Shown here piece after piece: positions 5,311 through 60,305 of a stretch of DNA of 64,000 nt. A program made the translations under genes and the position numbers. How positions within the stretch are numbered: the first letter of the stretch is position 1; each line of letters begins with the position of its first letter. A model generated the notes under the pieces. The model did no database searches. It was given only the letters and a program-made list of their open reading frames with translations, and was not told the DNA's origin. The stretch lies in sequence record PX994957.1. The stretch is one strand, 5' to 3'. The DNA is from a phage.

Positions 5311-6898
<1,588 letters not shown>

Positions 6899-6906
6899 AA
6901 TAAAAT

Positions 6907-6920
6907 GGGCCTTGCGGCCC
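6907..6920 (-). terminator. GNRA-tetraloop stem-loop (GGGCC-GCAA-GGCCC) between nrdB stop and denA start; terminator or translation-initiation structure
   Basis: perfect 5-bp stem plus GCAA loop, followed on minus strand by AUUUUAUU and the denA ATG. Confidence 0.5.
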
Positions 6921-6925
6921 ACTCC

Positions 6926-8104
6926 TTAAAAATATTTTTTAAAACTCATCATAACTTTATCATCAACATCATTATCAATCTGTGCTACAAGGTAAGATGA
7001 CAGTTCTACTTCTTGCGGCGCGGATTGAACATTATCAGAATTAAGGTATTCACGAATCCAAGGATATGGATGTTTAACCGGAGCATCGGTAATTGGGCAT
7101 GGAAGACCACACTGTTTCATACGAGATACAGTTAAGTAATCAATAAAGCTCCACATGCTATTTGTATTTAATCCAGGAACATCGCCATCTTTAAATAAAT
7201 GAACTGCCCAATCTTTTTCTTGGCGGTTAACTTCCATGAAAATATCAACTGCTTCTTGTTCACACTCTTGAGCAATTTTAACCCATTCATCACCATCAGT
7301 GCCAAGTTGGAGCTGACGAATAATATACTGGGTGCCTTTAAGGTGGAGTTGTTCGTCTCGAGCAATGAATTTCATAATCTTCGCATTACCTTCCATGATT
7401 TCCATATTTTTATGGAAGTTGAAAGTACATGCAAAGGATACATAAAAACGAATAGCTTCCAGGGCATTGATAACATGAAGGCAGAGATAAAGCGACTTCA
7501 TCAATGCATATTTACATTCTTCCACATGCATAAGACTATTTGAATATGCATCTAAATCATATTCATTTTCGGAAAAACATTTAAAAATTTCTTTTGCATT
7601 TTCCCATTCGCGCGTCTTAACCAGAACATCATCATAATAACGACCAATAGATTCAGCACGTTTCATGATAGCTTTATCTAATACAATCTCATCAAATACC
7701 TTTGACGGATCAGTATAAAGATTTCGCATAATATGAGTGTATGAACGACTGTGAATAGTTTCACTAAAAGTCCATGTAGCAACCCATGTATCAAGACTTG
7801 GGTCTGAAATTAACGACATAAGTACAGCAGACGGTGCACGACCCTGAATGCTATCTAGAAGTGATTGATACTTCAGGTTATTAGTAAAAATATCTTGCTG
7901 ATATTGAGGAAGCTTGTTAAATTGCGCAGCATCCATCATTAAGTTTACTTCTTCAGGACGCCAGAAAAATGACAACTGCTTTTCGGTTAAATCTTCAAAA
8001 ACTTTATGACGTTGAATATCATAACGCGCAATACCAAGACCTGAACCAAAAAACATAGGTTCTTTTAAAACATCAACTGGATTTGTATTAAAAACTGTGC
8101 TCAT
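6926..8104 (-). CDS. nrdB: ribonucleotide reductase small subunit (aerobic), uninterrupted
   Basis: 392 aa continuous ORF; R2 family; T4 synteny. Confidence 0.92.
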   Translation of the reverse strand: MSTVFNTNPVDVLKEPMFFGSGLGIARYDIQRHKVFEDLTEKQLSFFWRPEEVNLMMDAAQFNKLPQYQQDIFTNNLKYQSLLDSIQGRAPSAVLMSLISDPSLDTWVATWTFSETIHSRSYTHIMRNLYTDPSKVFDEIVLDKAIMKRAESIGRYYDDVLVKTREWENAKEIFKCFSENEYDLDAYSNSLMHVEECKYALMKSLYLCLHVINALEAIRFYVSFACTFNFHKNMEIMEGNAKIMKFIARDEQLHLKGTQYIIRQLQLGTDGDEWVKIAQECEQEAVDIFMEVNRQEKDWAVHLFKDGDVPGLNTNSMWSFIDYLTVSRMKQCGLPCPITDAPVKHPYPWIREYLNSDNVQSAPQEVELSSYLVAQIDNDVDDKVMMSFKKYF

Positions 8105-8155
8105 AAATTTTCCGCTTAGTTAATAGTTGGTGACTCGTCCGTGAGTCAAATTATA

Positions 8156-21762: not shown

Positions 21763-22878
21763 ATGGAAAAATTTATGGCAGAGTTTGGACAAGGATATGT
21801 CCAAACGCCATTTTTATCGGAAAGCAATTCAGTAAGATATAAAATAAGTATAGCGGGTTCTTGCCCGCTTTCTACCGCAGGACCATACGTTAAATTTCAA
21901 GATAATCCTGTAGGAAGTCAAACATTTAGTGCAGGTCTTCATTTAAGAGTTTTTGACCCTTCTACAGGAGCATTGGTTGATAGTAAGTCATATGTTTTTT
22001 CTACTTCAAATGATACAACATCTGCTGCTTTTGTTAGTTTCATGAATTCTTTTTCAAGCAATAGACTTGTTGCTATATTAACTAGCGGAAAGGTTAATTT
22101 TCCTCCTGAAGTAGTATCTTGGTTAAGAACGGCAGGAACATCTGCTTTTCCATCTGATTCTTTATTGTCAAGATTTGACGTATCATATGCTGCCTTTTAC
22201 ACTTCTTCTAAAAGAGCTATCGCACTAGAGCATGTTAAACTGAGTAACAGAAAAAGCACAGATGACTATCAAACTATATTAGATGTAGTATTTGATAGTT
22301 TAGAAGATGTTGGAGCGACAGGATTTCCTAAAAGAACATATGAAAGCGTTGAGCAATTTATGTCAGCTGTTGGTGGAACTAATAACGAAATTGCACGTCT
22401 ACCTACAGCATCTGCAATAAGTAAACTTTCTGACTATAATTTAATTCCTGGAGATGTTCTTTATCTTAAAGCACAACTATATGCTGACGCTGATTTATTA
22501 GCGTCGGGAACTACTAATATTTCAATTCGTTTTTATAATGCGTCAAATGGATATATTTCCTCGACACAAGCTGAGTTTACTGGACAGGCTGGGTCTTGGG
22601 AATTAAAGGAAGACTATGTAGTTGTTCCAGAAAATGCAGTTGGATTTACGATATATGCACAGAGAACTGCACAAGCGGGTCAAGGCGGTATGAGAAATTT
22701 AAGCTTTTCTGAAGTGTCAAGAAATGGTGGCATTTCAAAACCTGCTGAGTTTGGCGTCAATGGTATTCGAGTTAATTATATCTGTGAATCTGCTTCACCT
22801 CCTGATATAATGGTACTTCCTACACAAGCATCGTCTAAAACTGGTAAAGTGTTTGGGCAAGAATTTAGAGAAGTTTAA
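21763..22878 (+). CDS. 35: long tail fibre hinge (knee) protein gp35
   Basis: 371 aa; T4 synteny. Confidence 0.88.
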   Translation: MEKFMAEFGQGYVQTPFLSESNSVRYKISIAGSCPLSTAGPYVKFQDNPVGSQTFSAGLHLRVFDPSTGALVDSKSYVFSTSNDTTSAAFVSFMNSFSSNRLVAILTSGKVNFPPEVVSWLRTAGTSAFPSDSLLSRFDVSYAAFYTSSKRAIALEHVKLSNRKSTDDYQTILDVVFDSLEDVGATGFPKRTYESVEQFMSAVGGTNNEIARLPTASAISKLSDYNLIPGDVLYLKAQLYADADLLASGTTNISIRFYNASNGYISSTQAEFTGQAGSWELKEDYVVVPENAVGFTIYAQRTAQAGQGGMRNLSFSEVSRNGGISKPAEFGVNGIRVNYICESASPPDIMVLPTQASSKTGKVFGQEFREV

Positions 22879-26932: not shown

Positions 26933-26936
26933 AATG

Positions 26937-26950
26937 AGGGGCTTCGGCCC
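26937..26950 (+). promoter_or_regulatory. UUCG-tetraloop hairpin between gene 37 stop and gene 38 RBS
   Basis: GGGGC-UUCG-GCCCC immediately 5' of GGAGG and the gene 38 ATG. Confidence 0.5.
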
Positions 26951-26963
26951 CTTGGAGGTTTAT

Positions 26964-27758
26964 ATGGCAGTTGAAGGACCGTGGGTAGGATGGTCTGCGA
27001 GGGTACAAACTGGAGACCCTTGGATGGGTGGTGCCGCGCAGAGATTGAGAATGGGAATTCCGTTTTGGATGAGTAATATGATAGGTCGATCTGTTGAAGT
27101 AATTCACACCCTTGGAGCGGACCATAACTTTAATGGTCAATGGTTCCGAGATAGATGTTTTGAGGCAGGTAGTGCACCTATAGTGTTTAATATTACCGGA
27201 AATTTGGTATCATATTCTAGAGACGTTCCTTTATTCTTCATGTACGGAGATACACCTAATGAATATGTTCAGTTGAATATTGGTGGCGGCGTCCATATGT
27301 GGGGTAGAGGTGGACAAGGTGGATGGACTCATTCCGGCGGAGATGGTAATGGTCAACAAGGTGGTCATTGTATTCAAAATGACATCGGTGGACGATTAAG
27401 AATTAATAACGGTGGAGTAATTTGTGGTGGAGGTGGAGGTGGAGGTGGTATCGCTTATCGTCCTCACTCTGGTGCAAATTGGCAAGATATTGGTGGTGGT
27501 GGAGGAAGACCATTTGGCCCAGGAGGAGGCGGAGGTTATTCCGGCGGCGCAGCTTCTTATGATGGCCCAGGAGGTGGTTATAATTATGGTAATGCTCACT
27601 CTGGCCAGGGTGGTGATGCTGGCGCAAATGGACAAAATGCCTGGTATGATGGCGGTAAAGTTCTAAAAGTTGGAGCTGGTGGCGCTGCCGGATATGCTGT
27701 TATAGGATCAGCTCCAACATGGCAAAATGTTGGAGTAATATATGGTCCAAGGGTATAA
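26964..27758 (+). CDS. 38: tail fibre adhesin gp38 (T2-type, glycine-rich)
   Basis: 264 aa from [10 protein letters not shown] with GGAGG RBS; several poly-Gly blocks. Confidence 0.85.
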
Positions 27759-30538: not shown

Positions 30539-31174
30539 TCACAGTTCAGATGCTACAGTGATTACAGCTTCAATGTTTTCTGCCGAGCGTTTAATGTCAA
30601 GATACACATTACCGTTTTTAGCGATTTTACATGACATTCCGATATCAGTAAATTTCTGAATATGATGTTCCATCATTTTGTATCCAAAAATTCGCATATT
30701 TCCATTGTTGTTAATTTCAAAATTACGAATTCCGTGAGTACGTTTTTCTAAAATAGCGAGATAGTTACTACGATAAGTTTCAACCTTTTTAAGAACAAAT
30801 CCATTTTCATCTAAAAGTTTTAACATGAGGTCTTTATCTTCTTCCATATCAGAAGTAATTTCGCGAGCTTTACGAGTTGCTCGTTTTTTCAGTAGTTCCG
30901 GAGCATTTTCCTGTGCGTATAAAGTTGCTGCATTTGAAATAATATCCTGAGCTTCACCAGTAATGATTAATCCATCACCTGATTTCTCCACCAGGCCTTT
31001 TTTAATCAACACCCCAATATTACTATTAACTACTGCGTTACCTAAATCTGGATGCACCTCACGAACTTCTGCAGCTGTAATGAAATCTTTCTTAGCAATA
31101 GTAATTAAAATCGCAGCAGTTTTTTCATTCAGAACATCGTTAGAAGCTTTGATGATGTAAGTTACTTTAGACAT
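30539..31174 (-). CDS. motA: middle-transcription activator MotA (intact)
   Basis: 211 aa; matches recalled T4 MotA. Confidence 0.93.
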   Translation of the reverse strand: MSKVTYIIKASNDVLNEKTAAILITIAKKDFITAAEVREVHPDLGNAVVNSNIGVLIKKGLVEKSGDGLIITGEAQDIISNAATLYAQENAPELLKKRATRKAREITSDMEEDKDLMLKLLDENGFVLKKVETYRSNYLAILEKRTHGIRNFEINNNGNMRIFGYKMMEHHIQKFTDIGMSCKIAKNGNVYLDIKRSAENIEAVITVASEL

Positions 31175-31215
31175 TTTCTAATCTCCGTAATTCTGTATCA
31201 GTAGTTGATAGTTGT

Positions 31216-31245
31216 ATAGTACCACAGTATGCTTTGGTTGTAAAC
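31216..31245 (-). promoter_or_regulatory. sigma70-type early promoter for motA with conserved leader box
   Basis: minus strand GTTTAC-N18-TACTAT; leader box gtagttgatagttgtatagtacca. Confidence 0.6.
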
Positions 31246-31271
31246 CGTTTTGTGAAAAAAAAAATTAAAAT

Positions 31272-31297
31272 AAAAAAGGGAGAGCCTCGGCTCTCCC
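31272..31297 (-). terminator. rho-independent terminator (copy A)
   Basis: GGGAGAGCC-GAG-GCUCUCCC followed by U6 on minus strand. Confidence 0.7.
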
Positions 31298-31302
31298 TAA
31301 AA

Positions 31303-31452
31303 TTACTGCATGACTGTGATAACTGTCATGATAACACGTTGAATTCCGAACGCAAGAAGACCTCCTGCTACGGCTGGAACAACACCTAAACCCGCCAGTA
31401 AAATGCTACCGGATACTAATGCAGCGCTTGTAATACCTATGAATGGACTCAT
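31303..31452 (-). CDS. small hydrophobic membrane protein, 49 aa (copy A)
   Basis: own translation MSPFIGITSAALVSG...; ATG overlaps upstream stop (ATGA). Confidence 0.5.
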   Translation of the reverse strand: MSPFIGITSAALVSGSILLAGLGVVPAVAGGLLAFGIQRVIMTVITVMQ

Positions 31453-32174
31453 TTGATTTCCTCTAAATCTTTAGTGTATTCGGTAACTACATTAGTAGTT
31501 TTCCAATATTCGTTTTCTTCTTTCTTAGCTTTAGCTTCTTCAGCAAGTTTCTTTGCTTCGTCGGAAGTCATATGAAAAATATTCATTCCAACTAGTTTAT
31601 CAACATAAGAAGAATACATATCGATTTTCGAAAGTTCTTCGGTCAGTTCTTTGCGAGTTTTACCCTGCACAACGATTTCACCTGAAATTACTTTCTTAAT
31701 GAAATGTGCCTTGGCAAAGGCTAAACGAAAAGCTGACTCAGTTTCTTTGATTTTGTTATCAATTCGTTTTTGGACATAAGTTTTACGAACTTCAACAAAG
31801 TCTTTAATTAAATCAAGTTTTAACATGAGGTCTTTATCTTCTTCCATATCAGAAGTAATTTCGCGAGCTTTACGAGTTGCTCGTTTTTTCAGTAGTTCCG
31901 GAGCATTTTCCTGTGCGTATAAAGTTGCTGCATTTGAAATAATATCCTGAGCTTCACCAGTAATGATTAATCCATCACCTGATTTCTCCACCAGGCCTTT
32001 TTTAATCAACACCCCAATATTACTATTAACTACTGCGTTACCTAAATCTGGATGCACCTCACGAACTTCTGCAGCTGTAATGAAATCTTTCTTAGCAATA
32101 GTAATTAAAATCGCAGCAGTTTTTTCATTCAGAACATCGTTAGAAGCTTTGATGATGTAAGTTACTTTAGACAT
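31449..32174 (-). CDS. chimeric ORF: MotA residues 1-120 fused in frame to gp52 residues 322-442
   Basis: 241-aa ORF; N-terminal half identical to motA, C-terminal half identical to the gene 52 3' end; lies on the duplication junction 31816/31817. Confidence 0.8.
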   Translation of the reverse strand: MSKVTYIIKASNDVLNEKTAAILITIAKKDFITAAEVREVHPDLGNAVVNSNIGVLIKKGLVEKSGDGLIITGEAQDIISNAATLYAQENAPELLKKRATRKAREITSDMEEDKDLMLKLDLIKDFVEVRKTYVQKRIDNKIKETESAFRLAFAKAHFIKKVISGEIVVQGKTRKELTEELSKIDMYSSYVDKLVGMNIFHMTSDEAKKLAEEAKAKKEENEYWKTTNVVTEYTKDLEEIK

Positions 32175-32215
32175 TTTCTAATCTCCGTAATTCTGTATCA
32201 GTAGTTGATAGTTGT

Positions 32216-32245
32216 ATAGTACCACAGTATGCTTTGGTTGTAAAC
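32216..32245 (-). promoter_or_regulatory. duplicate copy of the motA early promoter, now upstream of the chimeric ORF
   Basis: identical to 31216-31245. Confidence 0.6.
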
Positions 32246-32271
32246 CGTTTTGTGAAAAAAAAAATTAAAAT

Positions 32272-32297
32272 AAAAAAGGGAGAGCCTCGGCTCTCCC
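32272..32297 (-). terminator. rho-independent terminator (copy B)
   Basis: identical to 31272-31297. Confidence 0.7.
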
Positions 32298-32302
32298 TAA
32301 AA

Positions 32303-32452
32303 TTACTGCATGACTGTGATAACTGTCATGATAACACGTTGAATTCCGAACGCAAGAAGACCTCCTGCTACGGCTGGAACAACACCTAAACCCGCCAGTA
32401 AAATGCTACCGGATACTAATGCAGCGCTTGTAATACCTATGAATGGACTCAT
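32303..32452 (-). CDS. small hydrophobic membrane protein, 49 aa (copy B)
   Basis: identical to 31303-31452. Confidence 0.5.
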   Translation of the reverse strand: MSPFIGITSAALVSGSILLAGLGVVPAVAGGLLAFGIQRVIMTVITVMQ

Positions 32453-33777
32453 TTGATTTCCTCTAAATCTTTAGTGTATTCGGTAACTACATTAGTAGTT
32501 TTCCAATATTCGTTTTCTTCTTTCTTAGCTTTAGCTTCTTCAGCAAGTTTCTTTGCTTCGTCGGAAGTCATATGAAAAATATTCATTCCAACTAGTTTAT
32601 CAACATAAGAAGAATACATATCGATTTTCGAAAGTTCTTCGGTCAGTTCTTTGCGAGTTTTACCCTGCACAACGATTTCACCTGAAATTACTTTCTTAAT
32701 GAAATGTGCCTTGGCAAAGGCTAAACGAAAAGCTGACTCAGTTTCTTTGATTTTGTTATCAATTCGTTTTTGGACATAAGTTTTACGAACTTCAACAAAG
32801 TCTTTAATTAAATCAACTACGTTATCGTAAACTTGTAGTTTTCCTTTCTCATTAATAACCGTAATATTCTGAGAACGACGCTCAATCAACCCGAAGTCTT
32901 TCATAATTTTTGCATGGCGTTCTTCTTCGTTATCGCTCAAAGAATATTCTTTACGGAATTTAACTTTGAATCCAAAACCATGCTCACCACAAGCATCATC
33001 CCATGTAATGAAGCCTTTATCTTCAAGTGGGTCTAAGATTTTACTCACATAAGTTTCACGATCATACTTATACGGAATCTCAGTGATATGCATTTGAGTT
33101 CGTGAAGTAAACTTATATGTTCCACGAATTTCATATTGGCCATCAATCTCAACGACTTCACCACGAAATTCTGGGAATTCTACCTTCGGTTTAGTTACTT
33201 TCTTTCCTTGAAGAGCTTGTAATACAGCTTTCTTAACAGAAGAAACACTATGAGGAAGAATGTAAGTTGCATAACCAGTTGCAATACCGGAAACACCATT
33301 AAGAAGAACAGTAGGAATAATAGGCAAATAGAAAGCAGGCGGAATGTGTTCTTTATCTTGATGTACCGGAGCATATTCAGTATCTTTATATACGTTATAG
33401 AAATTTTTACTTACACGAGCAAAAATATAACGACTTGCTGCTGCTTTTTGGACGGTACGAGAACCAAAGTTTCCTTGACCATCTAACAGAGGAAAATTAT
33501 TATTCCAAGTGTTAGCCATCAAAGCACCTGCGTCTTGCGCAGAGTTTTCACCATGATGATATCCAAGGTCCGCTACACCACCTGCAATAGAAGCGAGTTT
33601 GTGAAACTTATCTTTATTTCCTCGTGCCAAATCAAGAGCTCGAGCAATAACAAATCGTTGAACTGGCTTAAATCCGTCAATCATATTTGGAATGGCACGA
33701 TTTTCAACCGTGTACATAGCATAAGCCAATGCTTCATTATCAATGATACTTTTTAAATCGCGATTATTCAGTTGCAT
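32449..33777 (-). CDS. 52: DNA topoisomerase II medium subunit gp52 (GyrA-like, intact)
   Basis: 442 aa; catalytic-Tyr region AASRYI; T4 synteny. Confidence 0.93.
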   Translation of the reverse strand: MQLNNRDLKSIIDNEALAYAMYTVENRAIPNMIDGFKPVQRFVIARALDLARGNKDKFHKLASIAGGVADLGYHHGENSAQDAGALMANTWNNNFPLLDGQGNFGSRTVQKAAASRYIFARVSKNFYNVYKDTEYAPVHQDKEHIPPAFYLPIIPTVLLNGVSGIATGYATYILPHSVSSVKKAVLQALQGKKVTKPKVEFPEFRGEVVEIDGQYEIRGTYKFTSRTQMHITEIPYKYDRETYVSKILDPLEDKGFITWDDACGEHGFGFKVKFRKEYSLSDNEEERHAKIMKDFGLIERRSQNITVINEKGKLQVYDNVVDLIKDFVEVRKTYVQKRIDNKIKETESAFRLAFAKAHFIKKVISGEIVVQGKTRKELTEELSKIDMYSSYVDKLVGMNIFHMTSDEAKKLAEEAKAKKEENEYWKTTNVVTEYTKDLEEIK

Positions 33778-59149: not shown

Positions 59150-60305
59150 TTAACTGCTCGAGGTCAGTTTCTAAATCAGCTGCTGATTTACTTTTACTTT
59201 CTGGAGATTTAAATTTTTCAACCTTTGAGTTAATCAATTCATCAACTTCAGCTTCAACAATTTCATTACTATCAATAGCACCTAACTGATAAGCACGTTT
59301 AATAGCATCTCGGAATGGTTGATGCTTAAATAAAGGACCCCAGAATGTAGTGCAGTTGGTATCTTTTGCACGCCAAGATTTTTCTTCGCGAATCATCTCG
59401 CCGGTTTCTTCGTCAAGAAATTCACGAGCATACCAACCATTCTTAGGTTTTACTACAAATCCTAATTCTAGAGCCATATCTAACAATCCAGAATAAGGAT
59501 CGATACCACCGTCAAATTTAACATCAATAAAGAATTTACTTTTTTCTTTAACGGTACGAGATTTTTCTACATTTAGAACAAATTGATACCCCTGAAGATC
59601 AGAACCATCTTTAATCTGACGCTTACCGATAATGAATACAGTATCAGCCGAATACATTACGCCTGTACCACCTGTCATCACGGTTTTACTAAACATTTCA
59701 ATTGTTTCAATTGTATGGTTAACCGCAACACATGGAATATTTTTAATGCTAAAATAAGGAGTAACAATACGAAATAATGACTTCAGTGATTTAGCACGAG
59801 TCATATCTGCCACAGATTTTTCATTCAAGGCGTCTTCCGTTTCTTTCTTAGAAGCCATATTACCGATTGAGTCGATGAATACAATAACCTTTTCACCACG
59901 CTCAATAGCTTCAAGTTGATTCACCATATCAATTTTCAGCTGTTCAACTGACTGAATTGGCGTATGAATTACTCGTTCCGGGTCAACTCCCATGGATCGC
60001 AAATAAGCTGGAGTAATACCAAATTCGCTATCATAGAATAGACAAACCGCGTCAGGATATTTGTTCAAATATGCCGCAACCATAGTCAAAGACATATTTG
60101 ATTTAAAGTGTTTAGAAGGCCCTGCGAAAATAGTTAAACCAGACTGCATACCGCCATCAATCGCACCAGAAATAGCAATATTCAGCATTGGAATTTTTGT
60201 ACGGATTACATCCTTTTCATTAAAGAATTTAGATGTAGTCAGTTCAGCAGTCATTTTAGAAGTGGAAGCTTTAATCAAACGGGATTTTAAATCTGCAATA
60301 GACAT
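59124..60305 (-). CDS. uvsX: RecA-like recombinase UvsX
   Basis: 393 aa; Walker A GPSKHFKS; matches recalled T4 UvsX. Confidence 0.93.
   Translation of the reverse strand: MSIADLKSRLIKASTSKMTAELTTSKFFNEKDVIRTKIPMLNIAISGAIDGGMQSGLTIFAGPSKHFKSNMSLTMVAAYLNKYPDAVCLFYDSEFGITPAYLRSMGVDPERVIHTPIQSVEQLKIDMVNQLEAIERGEKVIVFIDSIGNMASKKETEDALNEKSVADMTRAKSLKSLFRIVTPYFSIKNIPCVAVNHTIETIEMFSKTVMTGGTGVMYSADTVFIIGKRQIKDGSDLQGYQFVLNVEKSRTVKEKSKFFIDVKFDGGIDPYSGLLDMALELGFVVKPKNGWYAREFLDEETGEMIREEKSWRAKDTNCTTFWGPLFKHQPFRDAIKRAYQLGAIDSNEIVEAEVDELINSKVEKFKSPESKSKSAADLETDLEQLSDMEEFNE

Follow-up and report, generated by a model that had tools for sequence, protein, structure and literature searches.

A Candidate Hairpin-Bridged Translation Initiation Region for denA at the nrdB-denA Junction of a Tequatrovirus

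Introduction

In the phage genome deposited as PX994957.1, the gene for the ribonucleotide reductase small subunit (nrdB) is followed on the minus strand by the gene for endonuclease II (denA), and a GC-rich hairpin with a GNRA tetraloop separates the only Shine-Dalgarno (SD) sequence of denA from its start codon. The question raised by this locus is how ribosomes find the denA start and what the hairpin contributes. A sequence-only reading of the same DNA had left two functions side by side: a transcription terminator, or a structure that brings the SD close to the ATG. The stretch analyzed here, termed the window, comprises 64,000 nucleotides of a Tequatrovirus, and T4 itself carries an identical nrdB-denA junction.

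Hairpin-bridged ribosome binding sites are textbook curiosities, and very few genes are known to have them. T4 genes 38 and 25 contain split initiation regions that have been shown experimentally to need a hairpin (review PMC3014915, which cites Nivinskas et al. 1999 for gene 38). With the hairpin folded, the SD and AUG come to lie 5 nt apart in gene 38 (22 nt in the linear sequence) and 11 nt apart in gene 25 (27 nt in the linear sequence), and mutations that destabilize the hairpin lower the translation of both genes (PMC3014915). Judged from its sequence and by analogy with these two sites, the nrdB-denA junction is probably a split, hairpin-bridged translation initiation region for denA of the same kind, a reading held here with moderate confidence.

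Organization of the nrdB-denA Junction

At the junction, the minus-strand mRNA reads ...AAAUAUUUU UAA GGAGU GGGCC GCAA GGCCC AUUUUAUU AUG AAA GAA..., and the last nrdB codons and stop are ...AAA AAA UAU UUU UAA (Table 1). The sequence-only reading had given this string and its coordinates correctly, including the AAGGAG that overlaps the nrdB stop, the hairpin that follows it, and the denA ATG beyond. The loop that it had classed as GNRA is a true GNRA at 6915-6912, and a sixth stem pair, U6921-A6906, is possible.

The gene names nrdB and denA, also proposed by that reading, are upheld by the Pfam families PF00268 and PF01541 and by PDB 2WSH (T4 endonuclease II), whose sequence consists of a tag followed by MKEIATEY... 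The nrdB annotation in related phages agrees with the window ORF 8104..6926, and the gene after denA encodes RNA ligase 1 (rnlA). Across the junction region, identity to hundreds of Tequatrovirus genomes is 97-99%, and in these the genes are annotated nrdB, denA, and rnlA. DenA protein has been detected by T4 proteomics (PMC9697503 supplement); since it is made in T4 infection, the junction region must support initiation.

Unlike in T4, nrdB in the window (6926-8104) has no group I intron or I-TevIII. The nrdA-nrdB gap is 51 nt long (8105-8155), and mobE and nrdB.1, present in T4, are absent there.

Table 1. Features of the nrdB-denA junction and of selected hairpins elsewhere in the window.
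Feature	Coordinates	Strand	Description
nrdB	6926..8104	(-)	Ribonucleotide reductase small subunit, 392 aa, without intron; ORF list and Pfam PF00268 (E = 3e-36)
nrdB stop UAA	6928-6926	(-)	Read from the sequence
Shine-Dalgarno AAGGAG	6922..6927	(-)	Overlaps nrdB stop; linear distance to denA AUG 23 nt
In-frame GUG	6920..6922	(-)	denA start of the 144-aa form in T4 RefSeq; not regarded as the true start
Core hairpin GGGCC-GCAA-GGCCC	6907..6920	(-)	5' arm 6920-6916, loop 6915-6912, 3' arm 6911-6907
Tail AUUUUAUU	6899..6906	(-)	U-rich segment from hairpin to AUG, without SD; terminator-like U-tract in the Tequatrovirus lineage
denA	6488..6898	(-)	Endonuclease II, GIY-YIG, 136 aa; AUG 6898-6896; Pfam PF01541
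C(UUCG)G-type hairpin after stop	26937-26952	(+)	Normal SD and next gene start downstream
C(UUCG)G-type hairpin after stop	34095-34080	(-)	Normal SD and next gene start downstream
C(UUCG)G-type hairpin after stop	36737-36722	(-)	Normal SD and next gene start downstream
C(UUCG)G-type hairpin after stop	36966-36949	(-)	Normal SD and next gene start downstream
C(UUCG)G-type hairpin after stop	42247-42230	(-)	Gene 39 start about 50 nt downstream

Shine-Dalgarno Spacing and Hairpin Stability

The best anti-SD duplex at the window junction is UAAGGAGU (-8.5 kcal/mol), and the best proximal duplex, at the canonical distance from the denA AUG, reaches merely -3.0 kcal/mol. A split site was defined as one with a linear SD-start distance of more than about 15 nt and a hairpin that cuts this spacing to a functional 5-11 nt. 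The denA junction combines a distant SD, no alternative SD, and an intervening stable hairpin; removal of the hairpin leaves a spacing of 9 nt if its 14-nt form is taken and 7 nt if its 16-nt form is taken.

The fold of a 71-nt segment around the junction has a free energy of -16.8 kcal/mol (z = -3.2), and one of 200 shuffled sequences was equally stable. The hairpin itself contributes -10.0 kcal/mol in its 14-nt form and -11.6 kcal/mol in the 16-nt form with the flanking U-A pair, and within 111 nt of surrounding sequence the ensemble pairing probability of its core is about 1. Rfam 15 gave no match at gathering score across the whole window, and a search of the junction region at E <= 10 gave merely sub-threshold chance matches.

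In the proposed mechanism, the sole SD of denA, which overlaps the nrdB stop, would be too far from the AUG in the linear sequence to work. The GC-rich GNRA hairpin, 14-16 nt in length, would fold as a compact unit, so that the 30S subunit would see the SD about 7-9 nt from the AUG. Based on sequence, conservation, and analogy, we infer that the hairpin enhances denA initiation.

Hairpins of this class (stem of at least 5 bp, at least four G-C pairs, 4-nt loop) occur 19 times in the window, compared with about 1.6 expected from shuffles, an excess that marks GC-rich tetraloop hairpins as a class under selection in this genome. In T4, stable C(UUCG)G and GNRA hairpins between cistrons were reportedly described by Tuerk and colleagues in 1988. 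The denA hairpin is of the same extra-stable tetraloop kind, but it lies between SD and AUG, whereas the intercistronic class members inspected in the window precede the SD of the next gene. It is the sole one of the 19 with an SD on its 5' side; at the other inspected intergenic hairpins that precede a gene start in the window, the order is hairpin, SD, AUG. The denA hairpin is probably a generic T4-type post-gene tetraloop hairpin, a form of mRNA punctuation or of 3' protection for the upstream cistron, around which the denA ribosome binding site would have been built.

Many members of the class are C(UUCG)G hairpins located just 3' of stop codons, and most of those after genes in the window have no U-tract. 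The hairpin at 42247-42230 was considered as a second instance of the order SD, hairpin, AUG and rejected, as the ATG that follows opens no long ORF and gene 39 begins about 50 nt further on.

Conservation Across Tevenvirinae

The junction set included Tequatrovirus Lutter, Mosigvirus APCEc01, Jiaodavirus KpnM6E1, and Moonvirus Moon from GenBank, together with 39 IMG/VR loci that encode DenA relatives at 57-99% identity; in total, it held 27 distinct nrdB-denA junctions. The verified genera in this set are Tequatrovirus, Mosigvirus, Jiaodavirus, and Moonvirus, and further lineages came from IMG/VR. With one exception (26 of 27), the stop and SD are followed by a GC-rich stem of 4-7 bp with a tetraloop (in one case a 5-nt loop), a tail of 6-10 nt, and the AUG.

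The spacing of these elements is narrow. SD-like purine runs (UAAGGAG, UAAGGA, UAAAGGA, UAGGAG) overlap or abut the nrdB stop, UAAGG(A) is kept in nearly all related junctions, and the gap from SD to stem is 0-2 nt, or up to 4 nt in one IMG/VR junction (L015), depending on how its stem is read. Two distant variants, L034 and L035, have a weak upstream SD (UAAGAG) that lies partly within the stem. In all hairpin-bearing junctions, both the best and the second-best duplex with the 16S 3' end lie upstream of, abut, or run into the 5' arm, and by the same two matches no junction variant has an SD in its tail. The tail measures mostly 7-8 nt across the 26 variants; their best anti-SD duplex ends 17-23 nt before the AUG, the linear SD-AUG distance is about 20-25 nt, and the effective distance, with the hairpin looped out, is 6-10 nt.

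The loop is usually UUCG, with GCAA or GUAA in Tequatrovirus and UUUG and UUAG found once each. UUCG, GCAA, and GUAA are extra-stable solely on the mRNA strand, which points to a hairpin that acts as sense-strand RNA.

In a gap-free, loop-centered alignment of 22 distinct sequences, the inner seven stem pairs are 90% paired. Four stem pairs carry double-sided changes, for example from G-C to C-G or A-U, in 23 cells. The observed pairing and covariation were matched by none of 500 column shuffles, and the covariation signal collapses when the 3' partner is slid by 1-3 columns. In related phages, the junction hairpin is thus maintained by compensatory change, as expected of a split initiation region. 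The nrdB stop and denA are not linked by a conserved in-frame read-through fusion; this possibility was rejected because spacer length is not constant across genera; it is, for instance, 27 nt in the window and 26 nt in Mosigvirus.

Among the sampled Tevenvirinae-type genomes, the arrangement is found whenever denA comes immediately after nrdB. Synteny of nrdB and denA is absent from Krischvirus, Tulanevirus, Cinqassovirus, and Slopekvirus, in which other genes precede denA. The denA gene of Krischvirus follows a GAAA hairpin and then an ordinary SD 5 nt before the AUG, and no hairpin is found upstream of denA in Tulanevirus, Cinqassovirus, or Slopekvirus. A degenerate-loop pattern search of IMG/VR recovered solely five Tequatrovirus contigs that were already in the set.

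The one junction that departs from the pattern, L033 (IMGVR_UViG_2974786931_000001, at about 1490-1503), has lost the whole module of SD, hairpin, and tail; its nrdB stop and denA start overlap as ATGA, with no SD. It is a natural deletion experiment. In its close relative L028, the module is present and carries the unusual 5-nt loop CUUGA.

Similarity to T4 Genes 38 and 25

The layout of the denA junction is equivalent to that of the two known split sites. The T4 gene 38 site reads GCA UAA GGAG AGGGGC UUCG GCCCUU CUAAAU AUG (T4 sequence UAAGGAGAGGGGCUUCGGCCCUUCUAAAUAUG); as at denA, an upstream UAA overlaps AAGGAG, a GC-rich tetraloop hairpin follows immediately, and a short, SD-free tail leads to the AUG. 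The linear spacing is 22 nt for gene 38 and 23 nt for denA. The two sites differ in setting, as genes 37 and 38 are late tail-fiber genes whereas nrdB and denA are prereplicative genes. They also differ in the loop, which is UUCG in gene 38 and GCAA in the window, although UUCG occurs at the denA junctions of other genera. The gene 38 tail, CUAAAU, is not U-rich and has no terminator-like character, unlike the U-rich denA tail. Finally, the gene 38 site has mutational support, whereas the denA site is predicted from sequence.

Gene 25 resembles denA in having its SD upstream of a hairpin that shortens the spacing and in having an upstream cistron that ends at the site. Its stem is AU-rich and weaker, its SD is GAGG, and the stop of gene 26 overlaps the gene 25 AUG itself. 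The gene 25 arrangement is conserved in, and limited to, close T-even phages (PMC3014915), whereas that of denA spans several Tevenvirinae genera.

An annotation-free scan of both strands of the T4 genome (169 kb) used author-chosen thresholds: an SD of at most -5.5 kcal/mol located 0-3 nt 5' of a hairpin of at most -4 kcal/mol; after a 3-11 nt tail, an ATG or GTG that opens an ORF of at least 50 aa; and no proximal SD. It returned five matches, namely the starts of gene 25, gene 38, and denA and in-frame internal ATGs in uvsX and gene 37. The only real gene starts among them are therefore those of the published genes 25 and 38 plus denA, and of their three hairpins, that of denA has the lowest free energy (-11.6 kcal/mol, compared with -8.5 for gene 38 and -6.4 for gene 25).

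Internal ATGs with an SD and a weak hairpin were found at 59477 (-) in the window and at 22739 (-) and 157598 (+) in T4, within uvsX and T4 gene 37, and are probably false positives. T4 uses internal starts in other genes.

The denA junction of one IMG/VR contig, L024 (IMGVR_UViG_650627040_000001; UAAGGAGAGGGCCUUCGGGCCCUUCUGUUAUG), is nearly identical to the T4 gene 37-38 junction (T4 159617-159651). This likeness could reflect convergence under equal constraints or the transfer of a small module.

Gene 38 of the window itself (26934-27758, +) encodes a T2-type glycine-rich adhesin and not the T4-type chaperone. Its start region runs from AGGGGC-UUCG-GCCCCU through UGGAGG to the AUG, which is the ordinary order, and the protein likely begins MAVEGPW. 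Its SD is a normal one located after the hairpin; this genome therefore lacks the classic gene 38 split site, and the window offers no internal comparator for denA.

Alternative Functions of the Hairpin

The hairpin and its U-tract could primarily form a Rho-independent terminator or attenuator that ends most nrdA-nrdB transcripts and keeps denA low, but this is unlikely. In the window and T4, a 6-bp GC stem (UGGGCC-GCAA-GGCCCA) is followed by UUUUAUU, and its d'Aubenton-Carafa-type score (d) of +24.7 ranks second of the 13 window hairpins scored, behind only the strong terminator hairpin at 31298-31277. In several GenBank records, a terminator is annotated exactly at the junction hairpin. The denA hairpin thus shares a GC-rich stem, a 4-nt loop, a short U-tract, and a positive score with intrinsic terminators such as the weak internal one documented nearby in T4 mobE, from which it differs in its short stem (5-6 bp, compared with 9 bp in mobE; PMC2790892). 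T4 RNA kinetics place nrdB among the early and denA among the middle transcripts (PMC9697503), which also speaks for the terminator reading.

While the GC stem and U-tract of a terminator are both present in the window, the signature is not conserved across the variants. A U-tract with a score above zero is found in only 11 of 26 junction variants, which indicates that termination is not the conserved function. The score falls to -43 in Mosigvirus and to -38 in L034 and L035 (tails GUAAAGCU and AUAAAGCU), all of which keep the hairpin, SD, and spacing. The terminator reading also leaves the placement of the SD 5' of the hairpin unexplained. A terminator scan of the window did not call the junction hairpin, probably because a G.U extension of the stem consumes the U-tract. 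Unlike at typical intrinsic terminators, only 8 nt separate the hairpin from a start codon that transcripts reach by read-through, and the U-tract is not conserved across genera. These 8 nt leave no room for a denA promoter; all denA mRNA therefore reads through the hairpin, and any termination is partial. If it occurs, it is a partial, lineage-specific addition in Tequatrovirus, where the U-rich tail may contribute weak transcription termination. No T4 3'-end map at the nrdB-denA junction was found in the literature searched.

The denA-rnlA spacer (6488-6436, -) contains a MotA-box-like ATGCUUCCA (6488-6480), a 12-nt spacer, and TACTAT (6467-6462), as well as a small hairpin, CCACA-UGGAG-UGUGG (6482-6468, -), with GGAG in its loop. 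These elements could represent an rnlA promoter and a RegB-type site. Such a promoter would permit independent rnlA expression, a point in favor of the terminator reading, and would confine the effect of a partial terminator mainly to denA.

The two functions offered by the sequence-only reading therefore fare differently. A structure that brings the SD close to the ATG is favored by the comparative evidence, specifically the SD 5' of the stem, the covariation, the 6-10 nt spacing, the gene 38 layout, and the T4 scan. A terminator is plausible only for the Tequatrovirus variant.

A second possibility, also doubtful, is that the hairpin is a generic intercistronic stabilizer or processing barrier for the nrdB 3' end, that denA is translated by termination-reinitiation, and that AAGGAG merely retains the ribosome. 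The abundance of GC-rich UUCG and GNRA hairpins after window genes, most of them without U-tracts, is consistent with such a role. The nrdB stop lies only 27 nt upstream of the denA AUG, from which reinitiation or coupling could supply denA translation without a bridged SD, and the L033 lineage has replaced the entire module with the ATGA overlap. The AUG and tail in the window sequence are predicted to pair with the last nrdB codons, and this pairing would be opened by ribosomes translating nrdB, which may thereby help to open the denA site. It also counts against the split-site reading that the hairpin may be merely tolerated instead of raising denA translation. So do the weak, partly stem-bound SD of L034 and L035 and the predicted pairing of the SD and AUG in naked RNA.

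However, coupling alone needs neither the 6-10 nt tail nor the tight adjacency of SD and stem, and only at denA, among the hairpin junctions inspected before gene starts, is there no normal SD after the hairpin. Moreover, the near-identical gene 38 site has been shown to be hairpin-dependent (PMC3014915). By analogy, genes 38 and 25 show that bridging and coupling can coexist. The deleted spacer and ATGA overlap of L033 suggest that the hairpin is dispensable where coupling is available to replace it.

A combined reading, in which the Tequatrovirus junction serves both as a split ribosome binding site and as an attenuator that responds to translation, is quite improbable. With merely 5 nt between the nrdB stop and the 5' arm, a ribosome that completes nrdB just after RNA polymerase has passed would cover this arm, block the hairpin, and let transcription continue into denA. 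In transcripts that are untranslated or uncoupled, the hairpin would form and termination would occur at the U-tract, while released read-through mRNA would refold the hairpin and bridge the SD to the AUG. If this were true, one 14-nt hairpin would control how much denA mRNA is made and how it is translated, and the output of a host-DNA-degrading nuclease would be tied to active nrdB translation.

It is less probable still that the hairpin represses translation. In the RNAfold prediction, GGAGU pairs with AUUUU and the stem reaches 10 bp; an extended stem of this kind could sequester the SD and keep endonuclease II low. The SD is paired with the U-rich tail in the minimum free energy structure, and in the ensemble of the naked RNA both the SD and the AUG are mostly paired, with SD bases unpaired at probabilities of 0.04-0.36. 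Freeing the SD costs 4.6 kcal/mol, which is less than the 8.5 kcal/mol gained from the SD:anti-SD duplex. The three or four outer pairs added in this way are exclusively G.U or A-U. They lack compensatory change, and 23-45% of variants leave them unpaired; sequestration was thus rejected as a conserved feature. Pairing between a purine-rich SD and a U-rich tail is expected from composition alone, and we take the outer pairs to be a by-product of it.

A strong RegB site at the junction is unlikely, as the consensus GG*AGRAYARAA does not match; GGAG is present, but the A-rich 3' context is replaced by the stem UGGGCCG, and secondary structure protects against RegB (PMC3014915).

The weakest alternative, that denA starts at GUG 6922-6920 as a 144-aa protein with the hairpin inside its coding sequence, has hardly any likelihood: the ORF is open from this GUG and NC_000866.4 annotates denA at 137517..137951, but this codon shares its first base with the final G of the SD (GGA-GUG), at zero spacing, and lies in the hairpin stem, the eight extra codons and their frame are not conserved across genera (the Mosigvirus spacer differs in length and has no GUG), the N-terminus MK(E/D)IA is conserved from the AUG across genera, other GenBank records annotate a 136-aa denA, and the crystallized protein (2WSH) is the 136-aa form, all of which makes an annotation error in T4 RefSeq probable.

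Implications of Probable Hairpin Bridging at denA

A split initiation region at denA would be a third T4 example of a known trick and not a new mechanism, and it leaves the understanding of T4 biology unchanged. No description linking denA to a split SD was found in the literature searched, and an earlier mention in older T4 papers is possible. As a third T4 case, denA would contribute a covarying stem conserved in several Tevenvirinae genera, natural exchanges of GNRA and UUCG loops, and one lineage with a natural deletion. The denA junctions form a comparative series on how large a structure the 30S platform accommodates between the SD and the start codon. For annotators, they are a warning that a terminator called by software 8 nt upstream of a start codon may belong to an initiation region.

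Tandem Duplication in the Window

Elsewhere, the window contains an exact 1000-nt tandem duplication (30815-32814), with one copy at 30815-31814 and the other at 31815-32814. The repeated segment takes in the 5' part of motA, the strong terminator hairpin at 31277-31298 (copy at 32277-32298), and the 3' part of gene 52. The duplication creates a hybrid ORF, 31449..32174 (-), in which the N-terminus of MotA is joined to the C-terminus of gp52. The T4 genome has no such 1000-nt duplication, and so round a length suggests that the repeat arose as an artefact of assembly or was engineered or planted.
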